DNA of 64,000 nt from Balanoglossus misakiensis (lineage: Eukaryota; Animalia; Hemichordata): assembly GCA_040954595.2 (NCBI GenBank), contig CM082579.2:12897834-12961833 (forward strand). The letters are read 5' to 3'. The first letter of the stretch is position 1. Each line of letters opens with the position of its first letter. Under the pieces are notes generated by a model that did not search any database, was not told where the DNA came from, and saw only the letters and a program-made list of their open reading frames with translations. A program made the position numbers and the translations under genes. Shown here one piece after another: positions 23,176-63,652 of this stretch.

Positions 23176-23489
23176 CCCTACCAGACAAAAGTAATGGGAC
23201 TTATGTCGCGGGAATCACTAGTGATTTCAAGGTGTCAATTCACAGCAAACATCGTGTTTGCGTTTTATCTGTAGCGGGATTCACGAGTGTTTATGGATAC
23301 ACACGGAACGTGTAATTAGCTGAGTACACGAACTTGCGTCAATCGAGAGATAAGGCTGCAACATAACATATTAGATATAGCGCCACCTACGATAAAAGAA
23401 CAGTTATCCTGCTCTAAAATTAATTAATACGGTAGGATGCGATCTGTTATGGGTTGAGGAAATTATTTGTATTCAAACTGGTAATGTCT

Positions 23490-23908
23490 GTGAAGTCAGT
23501 GTGGAGAATTGGTGGTTTAATGTTGATCTTCGTGTTCGTGAAGTCAGTGTGAAGAATTGGCCGTTTTATGTTGATCTTCGTGTTTGTGAAGTCAGTGTGG
23601 AGAATGACTGTTTTACGTTGTTGCTACGAATTTGCGAAGTCAGTGTGAAGAATTGGCCGTTTTATGTTGATCTTCGTGTTTGTGAAGTCAGTGAGGAGAA
23701 TGACTGTTTTACGTTGTTGCTACGAATTTGCGAAGTCAGTGTGAAGAATTGGCCGTTTTATGTTGATCTTCGTGTTTGTGAAGTCAGTGTAGAGAATGAC
23801 TGTTTTACGTTGTTGCTACGAATTTGCGAAGTCAGTGTGAAGAATTGGCCGTTTTATGTTGATCTTCGTGTTTGTGAAGTCAGTGTGGAGAATGACCGTT
23901 TTATGCTA
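23490..23908. repeat. Subterminal minisatellite: 48-bp monomers alternating as a 96-bp dimer (~8.7 monomers)
   Basis: gaagtcagtg recurs every 48 bp from 23492. Confidence 0.92.
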
Positions 23909-25967
23909 CGTGTATCCAATTATGACAGGTCGCTCATGAGGTCGCAATCGTTTTCGTGTTTACTGGACGGTATAATGGGCGAGAGAAAGCCGAGTTGCAA
24001 ATACACGTAGGTATTGATGCGCATTCATTTGAAACACCATATATGAGCCCGCTGATCGCACCGTTCAAACAAACAACTACTCCATGAGGTAGGCTTTGTG
24101 GCGCTGCTGAATTACTTCCCGTTATGTACTGCGATGATTGGCGTACGTACCATAGTCAATCCAGTGAGACGGTCAGTTGACTGTGTGCAAATGAATAAAA
24201 GACGTACTGATGCACGGTCTATTACAATGATAGAAATGAACATTATACACCGGGCAAGTAAAACCTGACACTGGTCAAAATAAGGCGGATACGCTGTTAT
24301 CCAACTGTTGTTTCTCATCCCTCTTGAAAATTTAATCTCATTAAAATATATGGTCACCGATGCAAATTTACCTACAGTTACCATGGCAAATTGAGATCTA
24401 GCCAATCGGAGATTTTCAGTGGTGCCACACGCGAAAAAAAAGAGCGCCGCCATATGTTCTTTATAACACAAAAATAAGCCCTTTCAGCCATATATAGGCG
24501 TATGTAAATTGGAGGTGAGCCTAAAACCTTAGACTATACCACTAGTCGCTTGGTGATTTTTAAATCTCAATTTTTGTGTTTTCGGTGTTTTTTTGTCTTA
24601 ATAAATAATTGCAATACTTTTTACATGCATGCTTGCCTCGAGCGTGTTTCTAGTAGTGAGGTGAGTTTCGAATTTGGGACTGAGCTTGTGGTTTCGGGTA
24701 GCGTCGACCAGGCCTTCGCGTTCCTTGCCGACTCTCCGTAACAGTTACCCGATTCCAAGCGGGGTCAGTAATTTCAACAGCCACATTGCGCATGTTGACC
24801 AAGTTCGAGGCCACGCATCGTATAGGCAAACTACCCTGTTTTCTCATGCCCGATAAAGTCTGCGTTTTATCGGATAAAATCGTTAATATCGTCTTACTTC
24901 TAAGTTAGTCTAATATTAGAGTAGGTGATAGGAGCTTGCTCCGGTTTCCTTTGTCTTACTCGCAGAAAACCGTTAAATGAAAACATTTTCTAACGTACAC
25001 AACTTAAACTATAATTATCCGACAATGACTTCCAGTGCCACGAGCTGGTAGGCAAGTTTCAACACATTTTTTTCGCAGTAATTTTGGACATACGCTGTCA
25101 CCGGAATACTTCTCTCACCACCGAAAAAGCAACATACGTCGGTAAACGTTGAAACACAACGGTTTTGTAAATTATCGACAGAGTAATATTGTTCATGTGA
25201 AAATCCGCCTATAGAAATGTCGAAATGTGTTTATCTTGTAAAATTCTCATATAAATGATTTTTTATTGGTAATGTACCGGTATGCTTCAAACCCGACACC
25301 ATGAAACGAGAAGGCTTTGCCTCTCTAAACTGAATCGGGAGATCTTGAAATTACGCGGTTAGTGGATAGATACCTACGCATGGCAAGTGGCTAATCCTAC
25401 GTGACGACAATTGACTGTGCACTTCCACAAAAACAACTGCGTCAAATCTCCATGTCTGGTATTTTAGCAAGAGAGTGGGAGACATTGTCGGCTCAATCTG
25501 ATGAATGCAAATCATCAGGCCGTGTAACGTGTGAAACACACAGATCTGTGTGCAGGCCTATCTCGCTCTCGCCCACGGTCAGTTACATTTTTTTTGCACT
25601 GCTGGGGATAATTACCAAAGACTGTCCTCGTATTTTCTCTCATTTTTACTGACCATTTTGGCCCCTCTGCTATACAAATGTTTCATGTCTTGGACGTATT
25701 TTGTGTGTATGGGCGCGATCCTTCGAGACCGACGCAGTCATATGACTTTCGTTACGGGTCCTTTAACCAGAGAGAAACTTAACTTTATTTATTTCATGAC
25801 ATAATAAAGCTCATGGACCAGGTCCAGTCCATGCATTGATCAAAAAGGAAATATACGCAGAACTAGCGATATACATGAAACACTGAGTCCCTAACAAAAC
25901 TGTAACCAAGTGGCGATGCGATGTCTGAGAACACTAGCGCTTCCGTGAAACCCGTGTACCGGTACAA

Positions 25968-26290
25968 ACGGCAGGGTTCTGTCCGCCCCCCCCCCCCAAC
26001 CCGAAGTGGTGTCGAAAGGTATTATGCAAGGGAAATAATCGAACCCACTTCTCTAAATAGCTTGCTCACATTTACACTGTCTCTTTTTTCAAAAAGGCCT
26101 ACTATCGTATGTGAATCACCAAGACAGAAAATGTTAATCTCGTGCACTGGTTGTACACGGAAACAATCAAGTAATCGGTTGCCCATCAACAAACTTGTCA
26201 AAATTGTCAGTTTCAACAAAAGGCGGCACGCGTAAGACGGAGCGTTTATTTTGTTCGTAAATGCGGTCGTGTGAATGGTTGATGCGATCG
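25968..26290. repeat. Dispersed ~320-bp repeat, inverted copy at ~57525-57840
   Basis: cagggttctgtc...aacccgaagtggtgtcgaaag and ggcacgcgtaagacggagcgtttattttgttcgtaaatgcggtcgtg are both found reverse-complemented at 57.5-57.8 kb. Confidence 0.88.
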
Positions 26291-26654
26291 GCAACATAAT
26301 TACTGAATTAAGAAGAACGTGGCTTATATATGAGTATACCGTATATGCCCCAAAGTGAACTGAGAGCTCGGAAACATGTATCCCACTTGCTGGTTGAGTC
26401 TCAATAAATATCACGGAATATTTAATTCTCTCGGTCCCAGTCTTTCTATGAGTTGCTGTTCTCTTTGTTTGGTGCTTTGTTTGAGATAACTCGCGTGACT
26501 CCTAATTTAGACCCAGCATGATGATTTTTAATTCCCGATTGGTCCATGTTGCTGAAAATACCCACTTCGCTTTAATTCGTCGTGGTCCAACTACAATTTC
26601 AAGGATTGATGTCTGTACAACAGCTCTTGAGTCAGCGTAAAGTTGACCGGAATT

Positions 26655-26756
26655 TAGCCTGGTCCCATACCAGTGTGTTTTAGATATATAGAAATTCAGT
26701 GCGTTTGAAGCGTGAATTTCTATATATCTAAAACACATTGGTATGGGATCAGGCTA
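26655..26756. mobile_element. 102-bp hairpin MITE with TAG...CTA ends and 9-bp TSD (AcademH-like)
   Basis: 44-bp arms with 2 mismatches. TSD accggaatt (26646-54) and acctgaatt (26757-65). Confidence 0.85.
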
Positions 26757-29700
26757 ACCTGAATTAGGCCAAATAAAAAATTGTGTGCAAACAATCAGAC
26801 CCTGAATTTGTGGCCTTGAAAAATCCTGAGAGATCGTAAAAAAACAAATGCCATTACTGTTCGATGTTTATATTTGCGTAGGGCATACGCCATGCAATGA
26901 GTGACCTCTGTGCATTTTATCATATTGGTTACAAGTAAATAAACATGCTCTAGTGACGAGTTCAATGCTTGCGTGTTTACCTGATGTAGTGCGATCCATG
27001 ATCATTCTCAACCCGAAGTGTTAGCCTGAGTGTATTTTCCTAATAAGTTGACAAGATTGCATGTACCTGATCATAATCTGATGTACACTTCGTCGATGAT
27101 AACATGTTAATTAATATGATAAGCCGGTCAGAAGGTGTGAATCAAAATGATACAATTTTGCCCATAGACAAACCATTGGTGAAAAATGCTGAGTTATCAG
27201 TTTTCTTCTATTATTGACTAAATTCGTGGCTCTGTATTTCATCAACAAGCACAGTGACCCCTATATTTTATTACGGATTTTCATTATACATACAAAGGAG
27301 AATCCAAAAATCCACACAATAAAAAGAAGATAATATTTTCAATTTTACTGAACGTACATCCTCTTTTAACGTAGCAAATGCAAGCTGCTAGAAATGTGTA
27401 CAAATACGTGAAGTATACACCATCTTATCCACCAGTTCAATTTATGTCTATTATCGTCGCATTTGTAACTTGCTTGTCTACGAATTTAAACGTATGACCC
27501 CCCATTTGACAGACTGTTGGTAGACCGTTTAAGCGTATGAAAAAGATTTGACACTCGGTTCTTGTCATCGTAAGCCTTATTTTATAAATAAATAAATTGG
27601 TTACTATTGGGTTTCTAACCCGGCAGTGATGAAGGTAGAGAGCAGTCATCTCTCCCCCCCCCCCCCCTCGGTTCTCTAAAATAAATATGTGTGTAAATCG
27701 ACGTACATAGCCATATGCTCCTATAACCCAAGGAAATGAAGGATTTTGCATGAAGACTGTGGTGAAACGCACAGTTAAGTTCAAGTAATCAAAATATTTT
27801 GTGGCTCTATATACCGGTACAAGTCCCTGGACTGTGCTCAATGTCACCGCACCTAGTATTAGTCAAATATTAACTCACATGGAATATGTCATCTTAATCT
27901 TTCTTACACATGAACTTCAAGCGTACGAGTTACACAATCATGATTACTCTGGGTCAAGTACCTCTGTCAACATTGGCCTGATACCTTGTCTGCGTTTAGC
28001 CCGGGTTGCAGGTATGTGTGTGCCCGGCCTCATTGGCTAGCGTAACGTCCCACCGGGAACAAAGACTGCGTAGCTTCTAGATCTAGATGAACGCCTGTGT
28101 CTCCCGCGGCCGACTGATCGTCTACTGGTTTTAGTAATTGTTGTCCTAGCTTTGTGATGTGAGTGTGTCGTTGTACAAAAGGTGGAGAGAGCGTGGAGAG
28201 AGAACTGTTTTTCGAGGGAAAATTAAATACGTGTACCGGTAGTTTTACGTCTAATAAATAAATAATTAAATTATTCCAGTATAAGAACATTTCTAGTTCT
28301 TTATAGGCCCAAAGGCTTTCGACACGTGCAGGAATGCGATGGGAGCTCGCTTGTTCTCGACCTGTTTGCGAGAGAACATGGTCTGATAGAACTGAAACCA
28401 GATACCATTTGCGACCATACACAAAGTGGTCTTCTGGAGCACAGGTATGTTCATGTTAAATGATGAAATAGAAGGCGGGGGAGGCGGGAAACGAACTTCC
28501 TGCCAACCACGATAAATATAGAGGCCTCTATATGGCATGTACAGTTAGCACATTACTAGTCTACAGAGACACAGTCATGTTCACTGAAATCAGATCACAT
28601 ATACTCACAATTCCGCCTGATCACGGTCACTCCACACACACACTGTGGCCTGATCAATCCCACAGAACTATTTAAAGGCCGCAAGAAACAGACATTCCTA
28701 TACATATCCAACAAAACTTGATTGGTCTGACGTTTTTATATAAAACTTGAATCAAAATATCTTCAAATACTACCGACGTGCTCATTTGGCGTTGAACAAG
28801 TTTCTGTGCTTCAATAGTCTCGGCCATTCAGATTATCTGTCTAGCTTTTTAAATAAAATCAACTGTAATAAGTGGATGTTGAAGTTTCTCAAGGACGTTT
28901 CTCCCAGGCTGCCATATCTCGACACAAGAAGCGTCCTCGAGGACTAGCCCTGCGAACAGGTCTGTTTGTTCCCGGCGTTACACGGAAGCCTGAGAGCAGC
29001 ACATGATACAGCCTTGTATAACGAACTGAAACTCATTTCTTTTACAAAATTAACAAAAAAACACGGATTCCCAGGTTTATCTGTCCCATCGACACAAAAT
29101 GCAAAAACAAAAAAATCAAAATTAGTCGAACGTATTCCTGTTTTTGCAATCTACGCGCTGCTTGGCAAAGCACGGTACAGGCCGGGGGACCATAGGATGA
29201 TGATAATAATAAAAAAAATGTAAAACAAACAACAAAACAATGTGTCATTTCTTGCTGTTTGTCGATGTTGCAGATAACTGTAAAAAAAAACATAATCGTG
29301 GAAAACACGACCTAGGTAGCCCAACGTCACTACTGTCTTATATACAGGCAAGGGTGGAATCGACATGCCTTGATCTCGGCTCATGGGCCACCTTCAAGGC
29401 CCTGAAAAATCACCCCATTCACCAGCGAGCGATTAAATTATGCCACCATAGGCACTGAAATTTACCTCACTGACCTATTTGGGGTTTCACTTGATCTATT
29501 GACCTGCAAACGAGTGGAAAAACGTCGATTTCCAAGTCGTACCCAGTCAAATTCAATCACATTTCAACTTCACCACCGATGTTGCCGGCTATGTTATCAC
29601 TGCCTATTTAAATTGACCAATCGGGCGCCCTGTAAAGGCTGCCTCGGCCACCCGATTTACTGCTCAACTCGTACGAGTACGTGTAACTGCGTTCAAAATA

Positions 29701-32700
29701 ACGCAAAAAGAAGCAAAACCGTAAGAGTGATACAGATAAACGGATACTTCCCAACTCTTTGTCAGACAATCTGCCGTTTTACGTTAGAACGTACACTTCC
29801 GGGTATTTAATCAGGTGGCTGCGTTTTTGTTAATTCAGTTCAGTGCATCTATTACAGAGGAACTGTGTTTAGCAATAAGTATTGGTCAAAATACAAGCAT
29901 GCATGAAAAGTGAACCATTGTCCGAATTAATAATGAATAAAAAGTTTGATCACCAATGAATACTCAAGCTTGCGTAAAACGCGGACGAGATGACGCATGT
30001 TTTTGTAAAAGAAAACCTAAACATGAACTTAATAACCATTTTACGACACACATGTTATACAATAGTACCGTACACTACCCACATTACATGTAGTCACCAG
30101 AGGGTCCACTCTACGTCGCAAAACGCTGGCTGTTTTGCGACCTTTTACGACGTCCACCTCAAGTACGTGTAATCACCCGCACCGCTTGCAGTCACTAAAC
30201 GCCGTCAACCGTGTGCATGATACGTTTGTTTTAACATCAGACAAAGCAAAAGAAGTTGTTGCAGAAACTTAACTTTCTTAACAGAAAGCATAGCTAATGC
30301 AGTCAGTCAATAACAGAGTCGCAATCGACACGTTCTAATAGTGTACCCCGCCGATGCTAGTGTACATGCAGTTTTTCATTTTAAGGCCTATCGATCTCTG
30401 TAGAAGTCCCTCAAGCTGGCAAGACACTGTGGTCAACAAATCAAGGAGCGCATTGCTATAATCATGGCCGGAATAATTCATCGTCAATATAATCCACTAA
30501 TTAACTAATCCTGTCGGCAAACTGACTTCATTTACACTTCGCCACAAATTTACCTATAGGTGGCTCGAGAGATTCGAAACCAAGAACCACGGGGTGGGAA
30601 TGTATTCTTCTTTTGTATCAGCTTCATCACTTTATTCAGGATTCATAGACAAGTGACTTCAACAAATCTTCCAACGACGCGTTGGTTTCGTGTGCGACCA
30701 GTTCTGTTGTTGCAACACAAGCTTAACCAATGTGACTTTAGTAAAATATTAAGGTGAAGACTGGACAGGAACAGAAACTAGCGGTAAGGTATCCCGACAC
30801 CCTAACAATGCCTGCACAAAACACTTTTACGGTATACCGGTAAGAGTGAGTACGGTAAAATTTACTACCCCCGTTATCGCCCAGCGATTGTATAAATTAG
30901 CACGTTTAAATTTGAACATGATAAGTCGCAATTTAATTGAAATACAATTTCAATGCCGGTCGTAAGGTAACGTGGAAACCTACTTTTTTTTTTTGGATAG
31001 CATCAAATGAAACGTGATATTCACGTCGGGAAGTGAAACAAACAATAAAGAGTATCGGCATACTGGTATAACACCCAGACCGTAAAATCAAAGTACCCCA
31101 AACATCAAGTTTTAATAGTAGACTTCATAATTTCGCTCATATTGCATTTATATACAACTCGATAGAGATATTTTAAAATTTGCGTTGCCGACATCGCCGA
31201 CATCGGCAAAGCTTGCATCACCAACTCGCGTGAAAATTCAAAAACTACTCGGGTCGGTAACGACTTACACCAAGTTGAGTTTATACCAAGTATTGCACAG
31301 AGAAGTGAATACACAACCGTCTATAAGAACCATGTAAATTTTGACTGGTCGACGAATAACACGTATGAAACCGCTCTAAAGAAATATTGAAATTTAAAGC
31401 GAAATGTCGAATGAGTAAAGTTTACAAATCATTTTTCCCTATTCAGTGTATTAGTATTCCACACATGAAATCAAGGCATCTCCTCTCCGGAGTTATAGTA
31501 TTGTGGAAAAACATAGAATAATTTGTCATATGATGAAATAGATCAGACTAAAAGTAAACACTGAAATGGCGATGGAATACCTTTGCACTAGAACAGACTT
31601 GCCAAAAAAGAAAAAAGAAAACTTTTTTTACAAAACCCGGTTTTTGGACGCTTTGTCAAGCGACTTCCACCATGATTGTCAACCGTCGCTTCCATCATCA
31701 TTCTCCGTAACATAGACTAATGAGCCGGACTCCGGGCAATGAAGCAACCACAAATGTACAATTTTCTACAAAACGTTTTTGTAGGAGTGAGCAGATAAGA
31801 TTAAAATAACGGACATACCGGTAGTGTCATTTGGAGAAGCTGTCAGTAGTGGATTAACGGTCCTGTGTTTGCTGTATAAATAAACCAAGCTAATAATTGT
31901 ACTCTGTCCATTTATGGTGGCGATTTTTTTTTCCGATTTCCCCCAATTTATGAACTTGCAAAACGTTTAGGTGAAAATAACTTAGTCTCAATAAGGACTT
32001 TTTTGGTCGTTTTTTTTCAACTTAAAGTGCCGTTCGCATAAATCATTTGTTTTTTTTTGTGTTACGTTTTTGGCTTAGGTGTGCAACTTGAAGGAGTGTC
32101 ACTGAGCAACGCATGAACAGATTGTTGTGATGTTTGGCCTGAATACAATGTACATGTACTGTAAAACACTTTATTTTCGCGAGTTAAATTTTTCGTGAGT
32201 TTCACGAGTATTAATTTTCACGTTCTCTTATTTCATTCACTGCCTCGTTATCTTCAAAAAAATTACGCGACTTTTTATTTTCACGCTATTTTGGGTCGCG
32301 GAAATTTTTTGCTCGCGATCAAATTTCCAATCACGATATGAAAGAAATCTTATGCGAAAACCTTACAAAAGTGAATTTCAAAATTCCAATGGGAGGTATT
32401 TTCTCACAATATATAAAGCTTTCTATTGCCAGGATCAGACTGTCTTTTTTATTTACACTTTTTTGAGTTAAAAAACTTGAGGTGTATGTCAACCTTAGGC
32501 AAATTCTACCACAATAAGTGGCTTCTGCGAAAAAGACTTTTTGACCAAAAATAGCAACTGGTTCCCCGCAAAATAAAATAATGCAAATGTCACCAGAATT
32601 GAAATTGTATACCAAAGCAACGGACTAACAGTTTTAGAGAAAGACAATTGCGAATGTTGACAAATTGATGCTGGACAAACAGGTAATTTGATAAGCTTCA

Positions 32701-33297
32701 CATAGCTGGCAGCAGAACTGAAAAGGTCAAAAATTGTGACTTAGTTGTACCATTAATCAATGTAGATAGAATACTAAGTTTCCAAAAGCTATTGGATTTT
32801 AAAGATTCAGGTAGGCAAAGTTCAAGGTTTCATTAAAAATATTTATTTTAACAAAAAACAGTGAAGTAAATTTTAAAAACAAAAAAAAATACAAAAAACA
32901 TTAAACTGAAATGCAAATCAAATCTGTGTGTCTTCTCATGGCATGAACCGGAGACATCTGTTGGTTAAAAAAAAATAAAGTTACGAATATTGATGCATCT
33001 AGAACAGCTGTACAGCTGCATACATTAACATGTTGATCCAACTAATTTATTCATCGGGAACGTAATGGAAATCAAATTCCATGCAGGAAGTTTCTCTTTA
33101 AGCTGAAAACCCGATTTCTACTGTACATTTAGATTGTTTTTTCACTATCTCATTGATTTTGTATTTTAGATAAAATGTGTGCCCAGCAAACCAAGTTAAA
33201 AATCAAAGGAAAGTGTTCTCATGGAGTCCAGGTGTCATACTCCGAGAAGCCCAGTGGCAAGAGACAAATGCTCGTTTCGACATTCTTTTTATGCCCA

Positions 33298-36200
33298 TCA
33301 TATTGCCCGGAAAGAAAACCTAATATAGACTAATTCCAGTTCACTTAAACTGACCACACCCCCCCCCCCCCCACACACACACACACTGGGTGCATGGATG
33401 CGACACATTTTGTGCAATATCTGATACACGGTTTTTGTCTAAGCCTGAAATATATACTCAAAAAGGAGTCTGTAAGTAGTATGTAAACTCTCTACTTACT
33501 CAGCATGCTTTGACGATATCGCTCTCTCTCCGAACTCCCTCGCGTTAACCTCCATTATTGTAATAGTTTGTTGGAGCTCTTGGCATTTATTGTCCTCCAA
33601 CGGCTCCGCCAAGTATTTAACTTCCTGTTATAAAACAATAATGACAATATGTGAGTGATACTCAATCTTGCATAACAAAAAGTGTTAATGATCTACCACT
33701 AACATGCTCCTTGCATTTAAATTATATTCCCTTTCACTATCATCTCTTTTGTAGTATTCCATGTTCAGTCACTGGATCCTTTAAAACAAGACATGATATA
33801 AACTGAGTGTTCGTTTTGTTTTTATTGCAAGTTAATAACAAAGGTATATAATTGCCAGGTAAAATAACAACGAGAAGTTCCAAAAAAACTCACATTCAGT
33901 GCATCCTGCGTAAGCGTCGCAGCTAGCATGAGGCACCCCTCCGCTATGTGGTGGGGCTGGTATTGCTGCCGTACATTCATTGACAGCAAGGTTATGTCTG
34001 CCAGATACTACAACGAAATGAAAAATTAATCAAGTCATGTATACAGACAATTATGCCAACCTACTAACATCTAAGACCGAAAATAAGATTAAAAAGTTTG
34101 ATGTTGTTGGAAGTTACAGTTACAAAGCTCAAGTTTAGATGAATCTTACATTAAGTGTGTATACTTTTCAAGATTGCTTGTTTTATTTTGACTAACTTTA
34201 TTAATAAAGTGATGTGTCACTTTTTTATCATCTGTCACATCAGACTTAAATGTTTTCAATCCAAATGTCTTACCTGTGCCACTTCTCTTGTTGTCCGTTT
34301 TATTTTGGGATTTAATTCCCATAGACACCCAAGGAAGGTTGTAACAGGAACTGTTGTTAATTTGAAATTTAGTAATTTCATAATTAACAGTTCCATGTTA
34401 CAAACCTCCCTTGGGGTAAAGGCATCCGCAGTATAGTCAGAAAATGTGGATGCTACAAAAACTGGTACTTCCAGAAGTTTGCTGTTATTGAAAGAAAGAA
34501 AATACCTTAGCATTATTTAAAAATGTGTGTATAGGGATAAACTGTGTTTACGCCATCTTGAAGATTTGCAGTGCATTATGGGTCAATTGAGTTCCGGTAC
34601 GGGGGGGGGGGTAACGTCTAAAACCTATCCAATTTTCCAGCTGTTTTGTCAGATTTTCTTCAAGTAACGTTAGTAGTAGTAGTAGTTACATGAATAAAAT
34701 CTAACTAAACTGCTGGAAAATGAATAGGTTGTAGACGCTACTTCCCCCCCCCCCCGTACCGGAACTCATTTGACCCATAATGCACTGCAAATCTTCAAGA
34801 TGGCGTAAACACAGTTTATCCCTATACATTATTGTAAACAAAAAAGGCGGGTATTGATTTGTCTGGTGGGGTGCTTCAACTTGGCCAATCCACCATGGGT
34901 GTATCCCCTGCCCTATTTTCACTGTTGACTTGTTGACAACCATTTTGGTGAGATTTTTGTCTACTTACTAATGAAGATAATCACCTATGTAGACTATGTA
35001 ATGCATGTAAAAAGGGTGCTGAGCTATGGCAGGTTACAAAATAAGCTTTCTGTTGATTTCAAATCATGGATTTAGTTTGAATTTTATTTTGTTGTAGTAA
35101 TTCAACTGTTTAGGTCATAGAAAAAGACCGAATGTTGATGATTTAAGATGAAACTAACTGCCAAGGTACACAATCTTACTGTTACACAACAAAACCAAAC
35201 ACACACAATTAATGAAAGTAAATCACTACAGACTGATGCCTTACCTAGCGGTAAACAGGCTTGCCGCAGCAACCAATTGCTTGAGTTCCACATGGAACGC
35301 CCGGCACCTTGTTATGAAGCTGTCGAAGTACCATATAGCTGTGTGTACTGTCTCAGGATCAAAATTCAGTTCTGTTGCCACGGCATACATCCAGTCAACG
35401 CAGACTGCTCTGTTATTAAGGTCCCTGGATGTCAATTGCGGGTACATGCTGTACCACACCGGCACACGTTCCTGGTGGAAGAAACAATACCAGTTACACA
35501 CCATGAATCTTTGTAAACAGTTAAATCCCTTGTAGAGAACCCCCCCCCCCCAAATCACAATGGCAGTTCACAGTTCACTTCAATTCAAAGCTTGAATATT
35601 TCGAATGCAGTCCAACTCCAAAACCATTCCGCAAGCTACTGAAGTGTAACTAACTCATGGAGTGTCAAAACGTAACCCCTTATTCCTAGTGTTTAACCCA
35701 CGTTCGATAACCATTAAGCTGTGCATGTTGAAAATCACAACAGGTGTGTTTCAACACAGATTGTTTATTACATTCAGACTGTCTACTAGAAGTATGTATA
35801 CTACAAAGACTGTTTATTTCTTGTTTATTCTGTCTTGGATTTATTATCAGGTGCGAGTAAAACGAAAAGCTCGCACTAAATTAGAACTGGATTAGATCTC
35901 ACACATCGACGTATCTCGTGTTCTCATTTGGGCCATTCCGTCTCTCTCCATGTCGAACCTATCCCCAAGTGTACGCCGCACAGTACATGTTTACAACCGA
36001 CTAGTTGTTGCACTGCTCTAATACTAGATTTTATTGCACAATAGTGCAATCAAACAGACGGGAAATCCTCAACAAAGTGAATGGAAACTGATTGTGCATT
36101 CCGTTTGTCGTAATCTAGATGGATAATGTAAACATTAAATGGTTGCTTTAAACCCCATGACTGTGGTCGAGTATAAGTAAGCTTTTTTTTCATATTCGTT

Positions 36201-48832: not shown

Positions 48833-48902
48833 TAGCCCGGAGACGCGGGCGTTGATCTAGAATCTAGACCAAAGCCCGTGTAAAGCCCGCGTCTCCGGGC
48901 TA
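48833..48902. mobile_element. 70-bp MITE with TAG...CTA ends and perfect 9-bp TSD (AcademH-like)
   Basis: 18-bp TIR tagcccggagacgcgggc. TSD cggaggcag at 48824-32 and 48903-11. Confidence 0.88.
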
Positions 48903-50888: not shown

Positions 50889-51025
50889 CAGTGATTGCGC
50901 TAGACCTCAAAATCTTGTGAAAATCAGGGGTCCCTAAATTATTTTTGTGGGTCCCCATTTTTCCAATATATTATAACACATACGTACTCGCAAACACTTA
51001 CTAGGGAAGTCAACATCACAGTGTA

Positions 51026-51687
51026 CAGTGAAACCTGGCAAAACCGACCTCACCTCGGACCACACATTCTGGTCGTTTTACTCAGAGTGGGCGTGGCTCC
51101 CCCCCCCCATCATGAACCCTTTGACCCCGATCTCATACACACAGTGCACAGCAGACGCACGCACGATATACACGCTTGTACATTCGTATTTCATGTTTAT
51201 TTCAAATAAAAGGTAATTAAAAAACTTCTGTCCAGTGTAATTTCTGAAAATTGTTGAAAATAAAAAAAGTAAATTCAAGTTCGTTCGCGGGCTAAGTGGG
51301 TAAACAGGAAGACGTACACTGTATTGTTTACAAAAAGAGATTCACACCTCGCCACTGGGAAGGCTTATCAGTAAATTGCTAACGAAGTGTTGACAAACCG
51401 TTGCTTTGACTATTGTTCGGAAGACAGGAAAACCAAAATTAGCACATCGTTGCGGTAATTTTTGATCAAAGACATGATTTCAACCTTTACAAAAAGTGAT
51501 CGGTCGGTCTATTCAGGTTGAATTTGAGGGGTGGGACCGACCAACGCGGTCGGTGTTCGAAGTAGACAGTGGTCGGTATTCAGAGTGACTTTTACCATTG
51601 GCGTCAATGGGCAATTTGCGGGACTAAACAGATCGGTCGATTTTCACAGTCGGTTTACCCAGGGGTCGGTTTTGCCAGGTTTTACTG
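51026..51687. mobile_element. Tc1/mariner-pogo-type MITE with TA duplication
   Basis: ta|cagtgaaacctggcaaaaccgacc ... ggtcggttttgccaggttttactg|ta. Confidence 0.85.
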
Positions 51688-53442
51688 TACATGTATTTCC
51701 ACATTTATTTTCATTTTCTATGAAAGTTTCATTTTTATTACTAAGTAATTTCCTTCTAGCTTTCTGTTCATTGAAGTTTGACATAGCTTGAGAAAAATTT
51801 TGAGAGAAATATTGACAGCCACTGGGGAAGAAAGTTATCGTGGAGATTAACTTCTTAGCTGCAGGCTTAGCTGGTGTTGAACTATCGTGCTCACTTCGTT
51901 TCTGTGCACGGCCGCCATCTTTAGTCAATCTGCCGACCTTTCAACTGCACATCACAGTGTTCTGCCCACGGTGGTCGCCGCCGGTCGTCCGCGACCGGCA
52001 CTCTCAGGTCGCGACCAAAACAAAAAGATTTTCATAGCTAAACAAACTAATAGATCCGAGTGAAAGAGGGTTTCTGTTGGTTTATTCATACCAAAAAAGG
52101 CCGACGATTTTGTACGAACTTGTATTTTTGTACACAGTTATTTGTCAGTATTTGTCCTAACTTGCAAATTGCCTACGCAAGACAAACTTTAGATACATGA
52201 AAAGCACTCGAATGAATGTTGACCATTTAACTCTACTTACAGTGAACCTAGCTCAATAGAGTCTGTGCTTCGAGGGAAACAAATTGTTCATACTTTCGTA
52301 AACAAAGTTGCACGGGAAAGTTTGCGTGAAACTACAATAAACAATCCGAATTATCGCTGGTGATTTTATCATATTTTTATCACAGATTAGAGGGGATGCC
52401 AAGAGACACGACTTCAAAAGAAAGGCCGCAGTTGTTCGTCCCGTTCTCAAGGCTCAATGAATAAATCTGCTAAATTATGAGGCATTTTGACAGGAAACTG
52501 ACAGACACATTAATAATAGGCAAACCTCAAATTCTGTAACATTTCACAATTTACGATTCTCTTTAAAGTATGGATTCAAATGGCGTATATAAATGTATAA
52601 TAAACAATTGTGCAGTTTTGTTTCCGTGCTGTCAAATGTCGATGATTCTCGAGATTAAGAGTCACTGTTCTGCGAGATAAACAGAATTCTTGCCTTGTTC
52701 TCACTGTTTCTGTCACCGGCGCTATGCCAATGTTTTCTCTGTGCAAACACAGGGGGTTAGCCCAAAGAATCTATATGCGTCCACACACTACACTTTTGGC
52801 CACTGTTTTGAAATAAACACCGTCTAATGGCCATCTTTAGCATCACAGCATTTAACAAATTGAGGACATCGAGGACATTACAGCAACATGTTTTAGTTTC
52901 TATACCTGCATATGCGTTCTAGCGACTAAGTCGTCATCATGACCGTTTGATACTGTTTAGAAGTAAATGAATGTTAATCCATAAATGGAAAATGTCTCGG
53001 CTTTTCGGTGATCGAGAGAACCTTCTGTTAGTTGGTGGCAGACAGAAGTGTTGCAGACCTGGCAAACCGTGAATCGTTTGAAAACCACTCGCGTCCAGTG
53101 TGATTGACTTCACAATGGAAACTGACCAAAGACAATGGGCTATACCTCACTAAATATTTGCGTCGGAGCGCTGTCGCTGAACCATCCCTCATCGCCGTCA
53201 AACAAGCGAAAAGCGTTCTCACTTATTTTTTTCGTATCTAGGCCGGTGTAGCACCGGTAAAAACGTTACAGTAAGAACTATATCTCTCTATCAGGTAACC
53301 GTTTAACTGTTGCCGTAAAGATGTCGTAGTTTGCGATTGAAAGGCTACAATGGAACCACACGGTAACTCCCACAAATTATAGCACGTACTACACACTTAC
53401 ACACGAAGTCAGAAATAGAGACGGAAACATTCGCTTCTATTT

Positions 53443-53959: not shown

Positions 53960-54425
53960 CCTCAACTCCGGCGCTTATCAGCCACTCTTCATCTTCATAT
54001 ATTCACCTTCTTCTGTTTAGTTCTGTGTGGATTGAATAAAAAAAGTAAGTTCATTAACATTGCTGTGTCATACATGCGAAATAAAGATGCATCGGAAATG
54101 CCACCATTCGTATCTTTGATTTCATTACCTGACACTAACAAGAAATGGATTGGGATTGCGCCAATTCCTTTTCTGTGGTGTGATCGAATTAGCTGTTGTT
54201 TTTATCTCTAAATAAACGGACTTTGTTAACCAGTAAAATGATGAATGAGATGTAGGCCTACATACCAGGTAAGCTCACGGCTATATCAACACTGTGACAT
54301 ATTTCATTTGTCACAGTCAGTACCAGTTCTGTTTGGGGTTTTATCGTGACTCCTTTTATCCTTGCAGCAACGGCAATTGCCAAGGCTGCACCTTCACTAC
54401 GGTCTTCCAGTAGACCAAAAGTTAT
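53960..54425 (-). other. Possible exons of an unidentified, probably decayed cargo gene
   Basis: AG/GT-bounded open exon 54425-54279 (ITFGLLEDRSEGAALAIAVAARIKGVTIKPQTELVLTVTNEICHSVDIA), plus two further exon-like blocks. Confidence 0.3.
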
Positions 54426-55482
54426 CTGGAATAAAAGTTAAATCTGATAAGTGATACATTATTGAATCAAGGTTTGGTGTCAGAGCATGGAGATACCTTG
54501 AATGAATGAATGAAAAATATGAAGAGTTTTGTACACTTATAGTAAAAAGTCTGCCCAGACAGAAAAGTTTTTGAACAAAAATAACACTATATCATGTTCT
54601 AAATGAAACTGTAATGGATGATGTAGATGTATGACATTGTCTAAATTCGCATGAACGCCGTTCAGTCAGTGCAACCCATCCCAGCGCAACTCATTGCAGC
54701 TGCACTGAAACATGTGTATTTAAACTTAGAACATGATACTTATGTCATACTTGAAACACATCTACGTTTTGTTCACTCTTTGAGGACTACCAGGTATAAT
54801 GTGTTTGAAAATTTAGACGATTTATGTTTCGTTCGGAAGAATTAAAATTGTCTCATTTAAAACACATATTACCACAGTTTCGGGTGTGATTAAATTTATC
54901 TGCCATATTTGCTCAAACTATAAACCCTATGCTCAAACATCATCGACGGAATTTCAGTGGATTTATTGGGTTTTTAATGGAAGCAGATCACTTTGAGGAA
55001 AATTTGGGCGTCGGGGGTGCTTTTAGGGGTGAGACCGTTTCAAATTTTCTCGCAGTTAAACCACGTAACTTAGCTGACGACAGAAAGTTGATTGGGAAAT
55101 CACACACCATTAGACAACATGTCACGTTCGTTACTCAGACTGTTATTTGGGAAAAAACGACTACTTTAGGCCTAATCTAAATAAGTCAATCTCAAGAGAA
55201 GAAGCAGTATTCTACTAAAATATCGCTAGAAACAAATCATAAACCTACCTTCAGTGATCGAATGCGAATGTCCCTGTAGAGCTGGTTGAAGCGTGTTGCG
55301 GAGAGATGGATGTTCGTGATGAAAGTCATGTTGGAGTTTATGTCTGTGTTCGCGCGGTAAACCCTTTATACACAGAGAAGTGGCGGTCGCTGTAATATAC
55401 TGGCCAATCACCAGCCAGCTTTTTCCGTGCAATTGACACCTTTTCTTCGGTTGACATTTCCAGATCGGTGTTAATCCCAAAG

Positions 55483-56322
55483 TTACCAGTATTGTTGTTG
55501 TTTTGGGGGTTTCCGGCTTGGGGGACCTGCTTTGTTTACTTTCCCAGGCACAACTTACGTTTGCGGCAAGGTACACATAAATTTATAATTCCAATGAGAT
55601 GATACCAATGATTCAAAGTCTAATCCAGAGTACAAGTGAAGGGTCTATATGATTTCATCTCTGAATCTTAAAAACATTTTTTCACTGAAAAGTGGCTGAA
55701 AACGCACATTGATGATCTCTATATGTTGTCCTTGCTCTATATACATTGTAGTTGACAATTTTATTCATCCACAGACGTTAATAACAATGTACATCGAAAT
55801 TCGGTTTTACAAAGCTGGGATGCAGCAATTGTTCATTTGGTTACACTTATGGCGGCTGGCAACTTTTGATTCGCTAGAAAGAGAAAGCTTGAGTCACACG
55901 CGAACCGTTCAGAATATGCAACAGACTGGTGGAATTCATTTTCAGTTCATCATATGAAACAAGCAGACTTTCATAATGTAACGCTTACTAAGACAAGTTA
56001 GATTGTTAATAAGTCGGCTTCGGCGAGCCTTGTGCAAAATACTACATTCAATTGTTCAGTCATTAGTCAAAGTTCGATCCTCCACCCATTTTGCTTAAAT
56101 TGCTGCTACATGGCTGGCAAAGAAGGCTCAACATTGTTGTGAGGGTAGGGGCGTGCCCGACATGCGTAACCAAACGGTGCAGTGTTCGTTCGTCTTCAGT
56201 CGTAGTTCCCTGAAAGCGTATAGATTTCGGACAATTTTCCTTATGGGTACTTCTAACTTTCAACCTATTTTTATAATTGTTTTCTTCACTTTGCTGGTTT
56301 TTAAACCAAAATGAGCACTCGT
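55483..56322. repeat. ~840-bp direct duplication, copy 2
   Basis: Matches 50050-50888. Confidence 0.95.
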
Positions 56323-57947
56323 GTTTAAACTGGGTAAGACTTATTTGGTCTTTAACACTGTGTGGTTCTGAAGAAATATACTGATCGTGGGAAAACAAAC
56401 ATCCACCACTTTATTCTCACCGAATCTGGGCGACACCGATTCTGACGCCTTTCGTAGGTGTGAAGCATAACCATTAGAGATTTCTTATCTGTGATTCGTC
56501 GGATTTTCTTAACAGCCCACACGTAACATTTTTTTAAAATGACAGCAGGTTGCAAAGTCGCTCTATGAAACTGCACACATTCATTTCAACAAAATGTATG
56601 CCATATCCCCAAACGTTGGTGACACGTTCTTGTTAATTCAGTAAACCTGGAAATGAATGCGCAGTTTTTTTTTCGCGCTTTGGGAGGGCCAGCTGATAAC
56701 GCGCAGTTTAATTTTAGCGTAAGACGACGTGAGAGAAACCATTGTGTTGAAGACAAAGCAATGGACCAATAGTGCAACTTTGTCGGCACCGTTTCAGTGC
56801 CGTCCTCCCCAACTCTATTTGTATTACCCGCCACTAATTACAAGATCATACGTTTCTAAAGTGATTTTGATATACGAATAAAACAGCATCATGCCAAAAC
56901 AAGTCCGTGTCTCTGATCTTGTGTTGTCTTTGGAATCGAGTTCAAAGGTCACTTTACTGTGATCGCTACGTGTTTCCTCATTCCTGCTAATCAAAATAAA
57001 TGACGTTCTAGCCAACTTGTCTTCAGTACGACGTCCAAGTAGTTCCAAAATTTCAAACAACTTTGTGCACGATTCTGAAGAATTTTCAAACGTAACGAAA
57101 TCGTAATTTTACAAACACAGAGCCTCTGTAAACGTCTCTATTTTTCTACATGACCCAAGAAATCAATCGCGGTAATTTGTACACGCATCGCCACTCGATC
57201 TTGCCGTCAACGAGCCGTTTTTCAAAGACATTCTCTGAAGCATTTCCAGCAGCTCAGCGATGATGATGCTCCGATTTCCGAAGTCAAAGTCTCGTTTGTC
57301 GGAGCTCAAGCCAGAACACGCGCAGTGGTTAGTTATTTTGACAGCGTCCGATGTATAAGCGTGTATAGTGAAGTGTAAACAAGGAAGCAGGTACAACGTT
57401 CGTATCGTATGCCCGTTTGGGGGCATTGAAAACATATGCGCAGCTTTAAATTCGCGCTCACGATCCAGCGCGAAATTGCGCGAAAAAAAAACTGCGCAAA
57501 AAATTTCCAGGTTTACAGAATGTTGCCGATCGCATCAACCATACACACGACCGCATTTACGAACAAAATAAACGCTCCGTCTTACACGTGCCGCCTTTTG
57601 TTGAAACTGACAATTTGTTGATCTGCATATGATGCCTTTATTGTTTCTGTGTACTACCTGAGCACGAAATTAACGTTTTCTGTCTTGGTGATTCACATAC
57701 GATAGGTTGTTCTTTTTTTTTTTTTACAACGAGACAGTGTTAATGTGGTCAAGCTATATAGAGCGGGGGGTTCGATTTTCCCCTGCATGATAGCTTTCGA
57801 CACCACTTCGGGTTGGGGGGGGGGCTGACAGAACCCTGCAGTATGTAGGGGCGTGCCCGACATGCGTAACCAAACGGTGCAGTGTTCGTTCGTCATCAGT
57901 CGTAGTTCCCTGAAAGCGTATAGATTTCGGACAATTTTCCTTATGGG

Positions 57948-60900
57948 TATACTACTTAAGCTGTTTGATCAAAAACGGTTTGGTTGACCGTACGTCATCG
58001 GTCTTACGGTGGTATATCCATGCATGCGCAAGCTTTGTAGAATGACTTTATTGTCTGAACAGTTAAAAGTTCATTGATTCCCCAAACACGTTAACAATCT
58101 ACGATTCCCCGTTAGATCAAGTTCACCTACACATCAAACTGCGTCTTATGGCAAAAACTGAAATTCTGGCATTTAAAAATGATGTCGACGCCACGGGAAT
58201 TGTGTGTCTCCAGATCTGTGCCTGCATTTGAAGCGTGAACCTGACACGGACCGCTTAGTAATTCTCGCGGGATTCACGAACTTAATAATTTTAGGCAAGC
58301 GGTAAAATAATTGAAAACAGTGGAATTCATTGGACAAAAGTTTTAGTGCTTTGGAAGTTGTTTCGCATTTTAGCCTGTATGTGTATGCGAAGAAGGGTAC
58401 ACGTTTTGATTTGAAACAAACTCGAAATTTTGTTTTCCGTCGCGGTACGCTAGGTGAAGTTCACGTAACACCGATCTCACGCGCAACTCCTACCACCTAG
58501 TGATTCCCGCGGGATTTTTTCCCTTTTAATTTTGGCAAGTGTTTTTTTTTTTATAATAAATCAGTTCTGTACAAAATCATGAAATGAAAACCATGCAATT
58601 CTTTCAAGAAAGAAAAGAAACCGACAATGATTGCAAGACCACTTCTTGGACGACGACCGGCGATGCATTGAAAGTCGACGCCTTCCGTTTCAGTTGTTAT
58701 CACGTGGCAAACCACGTAGCAAATCCAACTACGACAGTTGGGTTGACTGTGTACGGTACCGGTACTTCCACACAAAAATACGTCCATTAGCAAGAGCGTG
58801 GAGGACATTACCGGTTCAATCTGATGAGTGCGAGTCCTAATGTTTTACAAATGCTCACAGGCTGGCATATGGTTATTTATTAGAATAGTTAAAGGTATTA
58901 CAAATGAAATATTACGTAGTTATAGATATTAGGGGATCATTGTCCCCGCATTGCCATAAATCTGTCGACATCAAGCAAAACATCACAGGTCAGAGGGGGA
59001 GAGCCCTGCGTACAGGTCTTGAGTTCCCGACGTTACAGTAGACGGCGTAAGCGGTACAGTTGCCTGATTCAATTAGGCGATTATTGTGATAGCAAACAGT
59101 TACGTAAGTTTACTCGGTATCAGTTGTGTATACAGGTATACCGTATAGGCGCTTCCCACCGTGACTTTTAACCCTAAACAGCCCAGCTCTGCATATTGGT
59201 GCGGAGTAACGATTTCACGCGATGCTGCAACATTCAAATCGCAAAACGCTGTGTTCTGTCGATGTGTTAGGCGGATACTGAGAGCTTGCCGGTACTCGGC
59301 AAACTGATTTTCCTGCCGAAATAAAAAAAAACACACACTGCCAGCACGTCCGCCCATCTACCAACTTCATCGACAACAGTTGCCAGTCGCGTTTACCGAT
59401 ACTAGTGCGAGGACGAGCGGGGTGCGCGGGGTTAAATTCCTTCAATCACTGTCCCTCTATCACACGGTGCTTTAATGTTGAACTCACCGACAATGCTTCA
59501 TAATAGTATCGCATAATTATTGTATCGAGGATATAATATTTCTACGCCATTGCCGCTAGACTCCGACTGGTGGGGAAGACTATAATTTTGTGCTAACACT
59601 TTTTAAAACTGTGGTTCACCTGAGAGACAACAATCAATTACGTAATTCACCGACACGCTGGAGTGACCATGTGTAATCACTGTCAGTCAGTATAGCGGTC
59701 ATCAATTAATCATCACGTCAACTTTATTACAGCATGAACTCAGTGACAAGTAGCCCGGATGCGATAGTGACTCCTACGGGATTCCCAAGATCGTTTCCTT
59801 TACGTGGGGTGGTTGATCGGGAAAATGTTAATGAGTAAGACGTTTACGTATTCTGGTATACTATTTAGGCTGTTTGATCAAAAACAATTCGGTTGTACCG
59901 TACGTCATCGATCTTACGGTGGTATATCCATGCATGCGCAAGCTTTGTAGAATGGCTTTATTGTCTGAACAGTTAAAAGTTCATTGATTCCCCAAACACG
60001 TTAACAATCTACGATTCCCCGTTAGATCAAGTTCACCTACACATCAAACTGCGTCTTATGGCAAAAACTGAAATTCTGGCATTTAAAAATGATGTCGACG
60101 CCACGGGAATTGTGTGTCTCCAGATCTGTGCCTGCATTTGAAGCGTGAACCTGACACGGACCGCTTAGTAATTCTCGCAGGATTCACGAACTTAATAATT
60201 TTAGGCAAGCGGTAAAATAATTGAAAACAGTGGAATTCATTGGACAAACGTTTTAGTGCTTTGGAAGTTGTTTCGCATTTTAGCCTGTATGTTTATGCGA
60301 AGATGGGTACACGTTTTGATTTGAAACAAACTCGAAATTTTATTTTCCGTCGCGGTACGCTAGGTGAAGTTCACGTAACACCGATCTCACGCGCAACTCC
60401 TACCACCTAGTGATTCCCGCGGGATTTTTTCCCTTTTAATTTTGGCAAGTGTTTTTTTTTATAATAAATCAGTTCTGTACAAAATCATGAAATGAAAACC
60501 ATGCAATTCTTTCAAGAAAGAAAAGAAACCGACAATGATTGCAAGACCACTTCTTGGACGACGACCGGCGATGCATTGAAAGTCGACGCCTTCCGTTTCA
60601 GTTGTTATCACGTGGCAAACCACGTAGCAAATCCAACTACGACAGTTGGGTTGACTGTGTACGGTACCGGTACTTCCACACAAAAATGCGTCCATTAGCA
60701 AGAGCGTGGAGGACATTACCGGTTCAATCTGATGAGTGCGAGTCCTAATGTTTTACAAATGCTCACAGGCTGGCATATGGTTATTTATTAGAATAGTTAA
60801 AGGTATTACAAATGAAATATTACGTAGTTATAGATATTAGGGGATCATTGTCCCCGCATTGCCATAAATCTGTCGACATCAAGCAAAACATCACAGGTCA

Positions 60901-62550
60901 GAGGGGGAGAGCCCTGCGTACAGGTCTTGAGTTCCCGACGTTACAGTAGACGGCGTAAGCGGTACAGTTGCCTGATTCAATTAGGCGATTATTGTGATAG
61001 CAAACAGTTACGTAAGTTTACTCGGTATCAGTTGTGTATACAGGTATACCGTATAGGCGCTTCCCACCGTGACTTTTAACCCTAAACAGCCCAGCTCTGC
61101 ATATTGGTGGGGAGTAACGATTTCACGCGATGCTGCAACATTCAAATCGCAAAACGCTGTGTTCTGTCGATGTGTTAGGCGGATACTGAGAGCTTGCCGG
61201 TACTCGGCAAACTGATTTTCCTGCCGAAATAAAAAAAAAACACACACTTCCAGCACGTCCGCCCATCTACCAACTTCATCGACAACAGTTGCCAGTCGCG
61301 TTTACCGATACTAGTGCGAGGACGAGCGGGGTGCGCGGGGTTAAATTCCTTCAATCACTGTCCCTCTATCACACGGTGCTTTAATGTTGAACTCACCGAC
61401 AATGCTTCATAATAGTATCGCATAATTATTGTATCGAGGATATAATATTTCTACGCCATTGCCGCTAGACTCCGACTGGTGGGGAAGACTATAATTTTGT
61501 GCTAACACTTTTTAAAACTGTGGTTCACCTGAGAGACAACAATCAATTACGTAATTCACCGACACGCTGGAGTGACCATGTGTAATCACTGTCAGTCAGT
61601 ATAGCGGTCATCAATTAATCATCACGTCAACTTTATTACAGCATGAACTCAGTGACAAGTAGCCCGGATGCGATAGTGACTCCTACGGGATTCCCAAGAT
61701 CGTTTCCTTTACGTGGGGTGGTTGATCGGGAAAATGTTAATGAGTAAGACGTTTACGTATTCTGGTATACTATTTAGGCTGTTTGATCAAAAACAATTCG
61801 GTTGTACCGTACGTCATCGAGCTTACGGTGGTATATCCATGCATGCGCAAGCTTTGTAGAATGGCTTTATTGTCTGAACAGTTAAAAGTTCATTGATTCC
61901 CCAAACACGTTAACAATCTACGATTCCCCGTTAGATCAAGTTCACCTACACATCAAACTGCGTCTTATGGCAAAAACTGAAATTCTGGCATTTAAAAATG
62001 ATGTCGACGCCACGGGAATTGTGTGTCTCCAGATCTGTGCCTGCATTTGAAGCGTGAACCTGACACGGACCGCTTAGTAATTCTCGCAGGATTCACGAAC
62101 TTAATAATTTTAGGCAAGCGGTAAAATAATTGAAAACAGTGGAATTCATTGGACAAAAGTTTTAGTGCTTTGGAAGTTGTTTCGCATTTTAGCCTGTATG
62201 TTTATGCGATGAAACAAACTCAAAATTTTGTTTTCCGTCGCAGTACGCTGGTGTGAAGTTCACGTAACACCGATCTCACGCGGAACTCCTACCACCTAGT
62301 GATTCCCGCGGGATTTTTCCCCTTTTAATTTTGGCATGTGTCAGTATACGTATTTTTTAAAATAATAAATCAGTTCAGTACAATATCATGAAATGAAAAA
62401 AATGGAAACCATGCAATTCTTTGCACGAAAGAAAGAAACCAACATTGCAAGATCACTTAAAAAAACTTGGACGGCGGCCGATACATTGAAATTCGACGCC
62501 TTCCGTTTCAGTTGTTATCACGTGGCAAAGCACGTAGCAAATCCAACTGT
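57948..62550. repeat. 1,908-bp tandem repeat (~2.4 copies) near the right end of the giant element
   Basis: Copies start at ~57948, ~59856 and ~61765. Near-identical short ORFs recur at offset 1908. Confidence 0.95.
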
Positions 62551-63652
62551 GTACGGTTAACTGCGTCCAATTTTCCCCGAAACAACGTCCAGCTTTTCTG
62601 TCGCGATGCATCAATGAATCGACGCAGTGTTTAGCTTGCACGTGGCCGCGTGTTTATCCTGAGCTTTGGACAAACTTTCCAACCCTGATACATGTACCGG
62701 TAGTCACAGATGGACTGTCATAGAGCGTATAACAAAATCACGATTGATCTACCGGTATAATAATCGGACAATTTTGTGCATTCAATAAAAACATTTTGGT
62801 GACGTGATTTGCACTTACGCCACGATGATGTCCGATCTACCCTTCGCAGCAAATAGATCGCTCGGGATCAAAAAAGGCGACGCGGCGTATAGAGGCCGAT
62901 TGGGTATGGATTGGCAATGCCAGGGAAAATGATCCCCTATTAATATCGAATCAATGATTTGCGCCGTAACTTTCGGCAAGAAAAGTTACCAAATTTTACG
63001 CAGACGTGCAGAATTAATTACAAAATACAGCGACATATATCAAGCCTTTGCTCCATTCGCTTCTGTTTCGAAAGTTATTCCCTTGATCACTGAGTGACCG
63101 TAGTGGTGCTGACCTCATGCTCATATACGGTATATCCGTACAAAGGGTGTTAGCAGGGAACGTTTCAATTATGAACGTTATGTACAAATTCTAAAATAGC
63201 TTTGTACAGTGAAAGCAATGACCGTCGAAAATTTCAAAATTAATGGACACGCAAGTCGAGATGAGAGTAATGAATACTTTATTGTGTTACCATGTTGCAA
63301 ATAACGGATTTCGGACGCCGTATTATCTTAAATAATGACACATGATACGGATGAAATTAGGCGAGAGAACACCCAAAGTACTGCAAGGTTCGATAATGGT
63401 TACTGGGTGATAGACGGTTCCTACCAGCACGTATAACGCATTTCCATTCTTGGTCGTATGAGGGCGCAATCAAATACAAGAACGGGATTTTTGCGGGATT
63501 TACTCCCGCGGGAAAATTATCCAGGAAGTTCGGATTTACGGCGTGTTTCACGCGTGTTATATAACACGTCCGCGCGCGAATACTCTCCCGATACCGCAGT
63601 AAACACGAGGGATTTTTGCGGACAGTGGTCCCATTACTTTTGTCCGGTAGGG

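Follow-up and report, generated by a model that had tools for sequence, protein, structure and literature searches.

A 40-kb satellite insertion with a Tc1-type transposase and predicted BEN and cyclin genes in Balanoglossus misakiensis

Tc1-type elements are the textbook example of small, single-gene transposons. The accessible text of one source gives them a single open reading frame (ORF) and a mean length near 1,300 bp, and names TBE and Tec, among ciliate elements, as multi-ORF exceptions with DD34E transposases (PMC7325037). Natural transposition is said to drop above about 6 kb of cargo in a 2019 review of giant eukaryotic transposons, the available part of which does not contain the words 'Tc1' or 'mariner' (PMC6431247). 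Here, we analyse a 64,000-nucleotide stretch of the hemichordate Balanoglossus misakiensis (contig CM082579.2, forward-strand positions 12,897,834 to 12,961,833; hereafter, the window), in which a 130-bp satellite is interrupted by a 40-kb block with terminal inverted repeats (TIRs). The block, at 23176–63652, is a real insertion enclosing three credible genes: a transposase and, by predicted splicing, a BEN gene and a cyclin. It is very likely a member of a two-gene, transposase-plus-BEN Tc1-type lineage that we describe from metagenomic relatives, a firmer result than the mobility of the 40 kb. From this single insertion we infer movement as one unit: the block is probably one cut-and-paste transposon of the two-gene lineage, mobilised near its present size with the cyclin as cargo. 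A natural 40-kb Tc1-type member with a spliced host-type gene would extend the giant gene carriers of animals to this superfamily.

An insertion between satellite units

The insertion and its surroundings are delimited by six features.
21646–23175, no strand: left satellite in 130-bp units, its last two bases (23174–23175) being the TA target
23176–23200, plus strand: left TIR, 25 bp
23201–23475, plus strand: left subterminal zone, CpG-rich (observed/expected ratio ~1.5), with short CG-containing motifs shared with the right end
63353–63627, minus strand: right subterminal zone, CpG-rich (ratio ~1.6)
63628–63652, minus strand: right TIR, 25 bp
63653–64000, no strand: duplicated TA (63653–63654), then the 130-bp satellite back in phase

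Between the stop of the satellite at 23175 and its restart at 63653 lie 40,477 bp. The two ends mirror each other as inverted repeats with 24 of 25 bases in common; allowing up to three mismatches, their pattern occurs at these two places only in the window (0 expected, 100 shuffles), with no internal copy of either. A TA stands on both sides of the block, at 23174–23175 and at 63653–63654, the target duplication characteristic of the IS630–Tc1–mariner superfamily. Deletion of the block together with one TA restores the 130-bp period, the flanking units then being identical at 127 of 130 positions; with both TAs kept, identity falls to 30 of 130. Twelve satellite units in the window show the empty site. 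A first-pass annotation of this DNA, made from the letters alone, had reported the halt and in-phase restart of the satellite, the 25-bp TIRs with a TA on either side and the empty site in neighbouring units, and all three are borne out by these counts. The satellite, which is very abundant, includes 151-bp variant units and is preceded by a degenerate 4-base repeat (21075–21211).

Three genes lie inside.
47105–48118, minus strand: DD34E Tc1-type transposase, a single ORF of 337 amino acids, with a predicted intron in the 5′ untranslated region (49798–48131)
43854–46649, plus strand: predicted BEN gene, 332 amino acids, four exons (43854–43968, 44089–44244, 45709–45854 and 46068–46649)
32936–37455, minus strand: predicted cyclin gene, 252 amino acids, closest solved relative cyclin A2, seven exons (1–4: 37455–37434, 36817–36777, 35471–35245 and 34481–34274; 5–7: 34007–33894, 33624–33500 and 32957–32936)

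The transposase matches Pfam DDE_3 (E 1.8e-20) and two helix–turn–helix (HTH) families, giving the DDE_3-type protein with N-terminal HTH domains that marks IS630–Tc1–mariner elements, and its catalytic triad (D155, D239 and E274) has the DD34E spacing of the strict Tc1 family. The closest solved structure is Sleeping Beauty SB100X (E 1.7e-18), and a sea-cucumber 'Tcb2 transposase' (KAJ8020841.1), one relative with a name, is 37% identical. A TATA-like box at 49961 is the predicted promoter. No inverted repeat longer than 12 bp was found around the gene with arms in 41000–47110 and 48120–53000.

The splice models of the BEN gene, the cyclin and a tentative third gene were made by hand from the DNA alone. 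In the first two, every intron is GT–AG and the single stop stands at the end. The predicted BEN protein has a C-terminal BEN domain and a small N-terminal domain that weakly resembles that of the relatives described below. On the window's gene alone, Pfam BEN gives E 0.0013, below the cut-off; the predicted structure of the domain has a predicted local distance difference test score of 95.6 and resembles, as modelled, the BEN domains of BEND3 and BANP (Foldseek E 4e-4, TM 0.75). For the cyclin, two exons searched separately both had cyclin A2 nearest (E 6e-5 and 0.045), and of 15 candidate homologues that a one-exon search retrieved among longer proteins, none passed. The predicted protein begins only about 40 residues ahead of the cyclin box, without a long N-terminal extension, and contains no match to the destruction-box and KEN patterns tried. 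A five-exon model starting at an ATG at 35504 was dropped, as that ATG sits in an intron pyrimidine tract. The annotation's intact transposase lacking TIRs of its own, intact BEN gene and intact cyclin thus stand, the last two as open predicted models.

A lineage pairing transposase and BEN gene

Relatives of the transposase were drawn from 384 confirmed metagenome stretches, of which the best 80 form 38 sequence clusters; their spliced neighbours indicate eukaryotic hosts. Viral contigs contained distant transposases only, which were taken as outgroup. Searched blindly for inverted repeats, 12 of the 80 loci yielded pairs, five of them TA-bounded elements, and a motif search recovered the ends of a sixth. 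These six complete elements measure 3,051–8,797 bp, all are TA-flanked (L065 starts at the first base of its contig) and five enclose a BEN gene.
L013:3619–10557, L030:381–9177, L031:107–8162, L065:3–5181 and L069:4204–7254: complete TA-flanked elements with DD34E transposase and BEN gene (L013 is the one recovered by motif)
L063:883–4274: complete 3.4-kb relative without a BEN match
L001, L002, L003, L007, L008, L009, L013 and L035: loci in which TCTCGCGAGA, the BANP-type site, forms arrays immediately inside the ends

A Pfam scan of 115 of 149 ORFs from 29 loci placed BEN beside the transposase in nine clusters at E ≤ 0.01, six of them above the cut-off. A dedicated BEN profile, seeded with ten of the loci later scored, gave matches beside the transposase in 18 of the 38 clusters and recognised the BEN gene of the window (E 2e-19). 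A second profile, covering the N-terminal domain of the partner gene, added five clusters and weakly matched exon 2 of the window's BEN gene (E 0.009). In total, part of a BEN gene adjoins the transposase in 23 of 38 clusters, its orientation relative to the transposase varying, and the window's BEN is 31–43% identical to BEN in five loci (E 1e-11 to 1e-13). In L002 the gene lies apparently downstream of the right end; that orientation was left unused because of a probable assembly join through subterminal arrays. Given its presence in 23 of 38 clusters and in five of six complete elements, the BEN gene is a conserved partner gene across the lineage and not captured cargo. The first-pass description of the element as cargo-carrying holds for the predicted cyclin and fails for BEN. 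Compact single-gene forms also occur in the lineage, as L063 shows.

In a FastTree tree of the transposases, rooted at its midpoint, the window's transposase and all 18 BEN-linked rows share one side of a split with support of 100, and 33 other Tc1-like proteins lie opposite; neither this tree nor a quick likelihood tree included named family references.

The ends provide a further comparison. Over the first 20 bases, the window's end has 12–15 matches with 18 of 19 family ends and 7 with the remaining one, and shares an 11-base in-register identity with several of them. Matrices built from relatives only were scored at ~128,000 window positions, and both ranked the window's ends first and second: one from 11 family ends (14.4 and 8.6, next 6.3), for which the motif filter had been written after the window's end was seen, and one from the six complete relatives (18.4 and 16.3, next 15.9). 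Directly inside their ends the relatives carry CpG-rich motif arrays (observed/expected 1.0–2.8, 24 ends). In one sub-lineage, to which the majority of the nearest BEN genes to that of the window belong, the array unit is TCTCGCGAGA; all 27 of its occurrences in 369,635 bases fall in the subterminal arrays of eight loci. According to the available part of one report, BANP binds this sequence (PMC10206803). By comparison with these relatives, the window's ends appear to belong with the transposase that they enclose. The exact end pattern had no match in the metagenome contigs.

The two-gene lineage poses the question of whether a BEN helper raises the cargo limit of a Tc1 transposase, and its five complete DD34E-plus-BEN members deserve a description of their own.

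One unit or growth in place

The interior, beyond its three main genes, holds repeats and modules that the first-pass annotation had not listed.
23485–23905, no strand: 48/96-bp tandem array
34528–34828, no strand: 300-bp palindromic repeat, resembling a miniature inverted-repeat transposable element, in a cyclin intron, with high contig depth
37560–42030, minus strand: cyclin upstream module with a TATA-like box at 37598, paralogue of 55330–56560
37999–41026, no strand: nested element of 3 kb, in which 115/126-bp tandem arrays lie between 50-bp perfect inverted ends
42627–43264, plus strand: 638-bp segment upstream of the BEN gene, with three inverted copies near the right end (95–97%)
50047–50888, minus strand: upstream module before the predicted transposase promoter, 98.6% identical to 55480–56322
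53995–55329, minus strand: tentative third gene, four exons, 110 amino acids, open, without a family, with a TATA-like box upstream
55480–56322, minus strand: upstream module of the tentative third gene
57946–62548, no strand: 1.9-kb unit in ~2.4 tandem copies (96%)

A regulatory-looking module thus recurs ahead of the cyclin, the transposase and the third ORF. With the nested element set aside (it sits within the cyclin upstream module and has no clear target duplication), the cyclin module is 77% identical to 55330–56560 over 1,029 columns, with an alignment score of 259 against a shuffled maximum of 41. By this alignment, the DNA upstream of the cyclin is an old paralogue of the modules before the transposase and the third ORF, and this relationship is older than the fresh-looking ends. 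The cyclin is probably cargo of the element.

Pfam was run on 154 of 157 interior ORFs of at least 62 amino acids (three near-duplicates and the central tandem array were omitted) and, spurious-looking matches in frames of the 48-bp tandem aside, matched the transposase, BEN and cyclin only. A crude splice-site scan of the interior yielded no additional multi-exon gene, no Rfam family was found in 21000–64000, and a single exon of the third ORF scored 0.77 at best in an atlas search (Lon protease C-terminal clusters), below the evidence level. The 843-bp direct repeat was ruled out as a pair of long terminal repeats, having neither TG..CA ends nor a retroelement ORF between its copies. A palindromic, CG-centred 10-base site occurs once per 1.9-kb unit (58508–58511, 60418–60421 and 62307–62310) and again in the right subterminal zone (63507–63510), with half-sites at the left end; it is a candidate binding site for the element's BEN protein.

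Four observations point toward one 40-kb unit: the absence of internal ends, the paralogous modules, a contrast in CpG content (median observed/expected 1.11 in 40 bins inside against 0.48 in 21 bins of the left flank, p 3.5e-6, the bins being non-independent) and a self-BLAST of the interior against the 21.6-kb left flank that returned no match. The giant IS630–Tc1–mariner element that the first-pass annotation had proposed is supported by the relatives, where such a transposase occurs together with a BEN gene, comparable ends and flanking TAs.

Contigs from two runs of one sample containing the transposase region were compared over 23040–37990; the sample is possibly that of the assembly and so not independent, and depth does not equal copy number. 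In run X1, exact contigs have a depth of about 22 over 23.9–29.3 kb, with few diverged ones. Over 29.6–36.1 kb, diverged contigs reach depths of 45–120, about twice the exact-contig depth or more. Contig joins from 25527 to 29236 and from 30965 to 32378 point to versions that lack 3.7 and 1.4 kb. The cyclin block appears to have at least one other version, as a host locus or in another element.

Several points weigh against a giant Tc1-type element that moved whole. One copy only of the 40-kb unit has been seen, and the depth pattern in X1 does not look like that of many near-identical full-length copies. Young duplications and nested repeats, possibly acquired after insertion, make up about 8 kb of the interior, and the complete relatives are small (3–9 kb), though contigs of at most 14.5 kb cannot show a giant. 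On membership of the lineage, protein searches found nothing nearer than ~40% full-length identity to the window's transposase, and the likelihood tree places it as a long-branch sister to the BEN-linked group, unstarred. Fifteen of the 38 clusters, mostly with short flanks, lack a BEN piece, as does the complete element L063. The seeded BEN profile and the late motif filter lower the weight of the results given with them, and the margin of the blind matrix is thin (left end 16.3 against the best internal site at 15.9). The window's subterminal motifs are sparser than those of the relatives and do not include TCTCGCGAGA. Its ends open with CCCTA, where most relatives have CAGTA or CGGTA; with CC at bases 2–3 in place of AG or GG, their opening five bases coincide with the start of a Tribolium CACTA-type end, which has a two-base duplication (PMC1636069, as far as its text is available).

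Of the rival explanations, growth in place fares best, and we regard it as unlikely: a transposase-plus-BEN element of 5–10 kb would have landed and then swelled as other elements inserted into it, DNA was duplicated and a host cyclin segment was copied in. The 3–9-kb length of all six complete relatives fits such a history, as do the nested repeats and young internal duplicates (98.6%, 96% and 95–97%), the contig versions without 3.7 and 1.4 kb in the same sample, the diverged versions of 29.6–36.1 kb, which could be the host locus that the cyclin came from, and the cyclin gene body, which is CpG-depleted (0.51) like the flank. Yet the ends (24 of 25), the TA and the satellite (127 of 130) look fresh, whereas the cyclin module, at 77%, is older; neither the transposase nor the BEN frame is broken; around the cyclin block, neither ends nor a target duplication turned up; and more than 30 kb remains once young duplicates and nested repeats are removed. 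The relatives' contigs, moreover, are too short to reveal a giant.

It is very improbable that the ends are a non-autonomous animal EnSpm/CACTA (CMC) shell that acquired a Tc1 gene and brought BEN with it, the alternative offered in the first-pass annotation. A CCCTA start and a 2-bp duplication are shared with animal TRC elements in the available text of PMC1636069, but past base 3 the end matches the Tc1–BEN relatives in register, the duplication is TA and the closest matches found to the window's BEN adjoin DD34E transposases. No CMC (Transposase_21-type) transposase was detected inside the block, by Pfam among the ORFs scanned or by tblastn with three transposase-like remnants of the flank. 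The co-occurrence of transposase, BEN and ends in relatives therefore makes a shell unlikely.

Just as improbable is a composite or artefact, in which two insertions at equivalent satellite TAs recombined or the assembly was mis-joined through the satellite. The site does lie in a very abundant satellite, and no listed contig bridges the junctions; against this, neither end has an internal partner at up to three mismatches, the ends match each other, the satellite phase is exact, exact contigs tile much of 23.9–29.3 kb (not independently, if the sample is that of the assembly) and the segments on either side of the transposase are paralogous to each other. PiggyBac or Teratorn, whose hallmark in the accessible text of PMC2872659 is CCYT ends with a TTAA duplication, is dismissed: the ends start CCCT but the duplication is TA.

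Under the favoured reading of a single mobile 40-kb unit, the element likely grew over time, by capture of a cyclin gene and duplication of internal DNA, and its jump into a satellite TA likely happened at nearly the present size. By analogy with Tc1/mariner biology, the transposase would bind the 25-bp ends, excise the unit and insert it at TA. The BEN protein may bind the CG-rich motifs next to the ends, and possibly internal promoters as well, as an accessory factor; such binding would help to bring distant ends together or protect the element from silencing, relaxing the usual size limit. More speculatively, the short cyclin A-like protein could act as a stable regulator of the cell cycle, to the advantage of the element or its host. 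Only tentatively do we extend this to a giant, cargo-carrying Tc1-type family in animals, in which BEN would enable the movement of tens of kilobases and the cyclin would be under an element-derived promoter.

The left flank is strewn with remnants of other mobile elements. An open 446-amino-acid frame at 8112–9452 (minus strand) matches Pfam DUF7869 and is presumably transposase-like by its motifs; the remnants at 1958–3499, 6409–6894, 14176–15742 and 18429–19108 (all minus strand) comprise a DEAD/RecQ-like helicase piece (Pfam DEAD) and what we take to be a long gag-like frame and EnSpm-like and LINE-like fragments.

Comparison with known elements

With the Tc1 family (Tc1, Sleeping Beauty and Minos), the window's element shares the DD34E triad, the HTH and DDE_3 domains, ends of ~25–30 bp and the TA duplication. 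It differs in being about 30 times longer (40,477 bp with at least three gene models, as against a single ORF of ~1.3 kb), in its second conserved gene and intact predicted spliced cyclin, and in CG-rich subterminal zones inside ends that start with CCC. Our literature search found no giant or BEN-carrying Tc1-type element, although Repbase Reports and most subscription papers lay outside its coverage and a prior description is possible. 'L31-duo' elements, unconfirmed in the literature searched, are two-ORF DD37E elements.

The ciliate TBE and Tec elements likewise join a DD34E transposase to extra genes; as described in the accessible text of PMC7325037, they differ in having three ORFs, including a zinc-finger protein or recombinase, ends of 80–700 bp and ciliate hosts, and that text mentions neither BEN nor cyclin. 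Animal CACTA/EnSpm 'TRC' elements (SmTRC1 and relatives) resemble the window's ends in their CCC start and two-base duplication, again from the available part of PMC1636069; the window's element has no Transposase_21 domain, its duplication is TA and the body of its ends is Tc1–BEN-like.

Maize En/Spm follows a TnpA–TnpD design. A similar arrangement, with a DNA-binding partner gene and subterminal motif arrays, may apply in the window. The predicted BEN domain shares the C-terminal domain fold of BEND3 and BANP, and the subterminal motif of a related sub-lineage is the BANP site; the window's BEN is 23–31% identical to these proteins and encoded in a transposon whose ends lack the exact BANP motif.

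Fungal Starships also span tens of kilobases and carry extra genes. The same is true of Teratorn, Polinton/Maverick and large Helitrons, according to the available part of PMC6431247. In the window's element, no herpesvirus, polymerase, capsid, Rep-helicase or tyrosine-recombinase gene was found, and its target is not TTAA. Its possible mobility bears on gene duplication in invertebrate genomes and on large-cargo transposon vectors. Should the tentative giant Tc1-type family prove true, it would be an animal, cut-and-paste counterpart of the fungal Starships, with a cyclin that could influence the host cell cycle.

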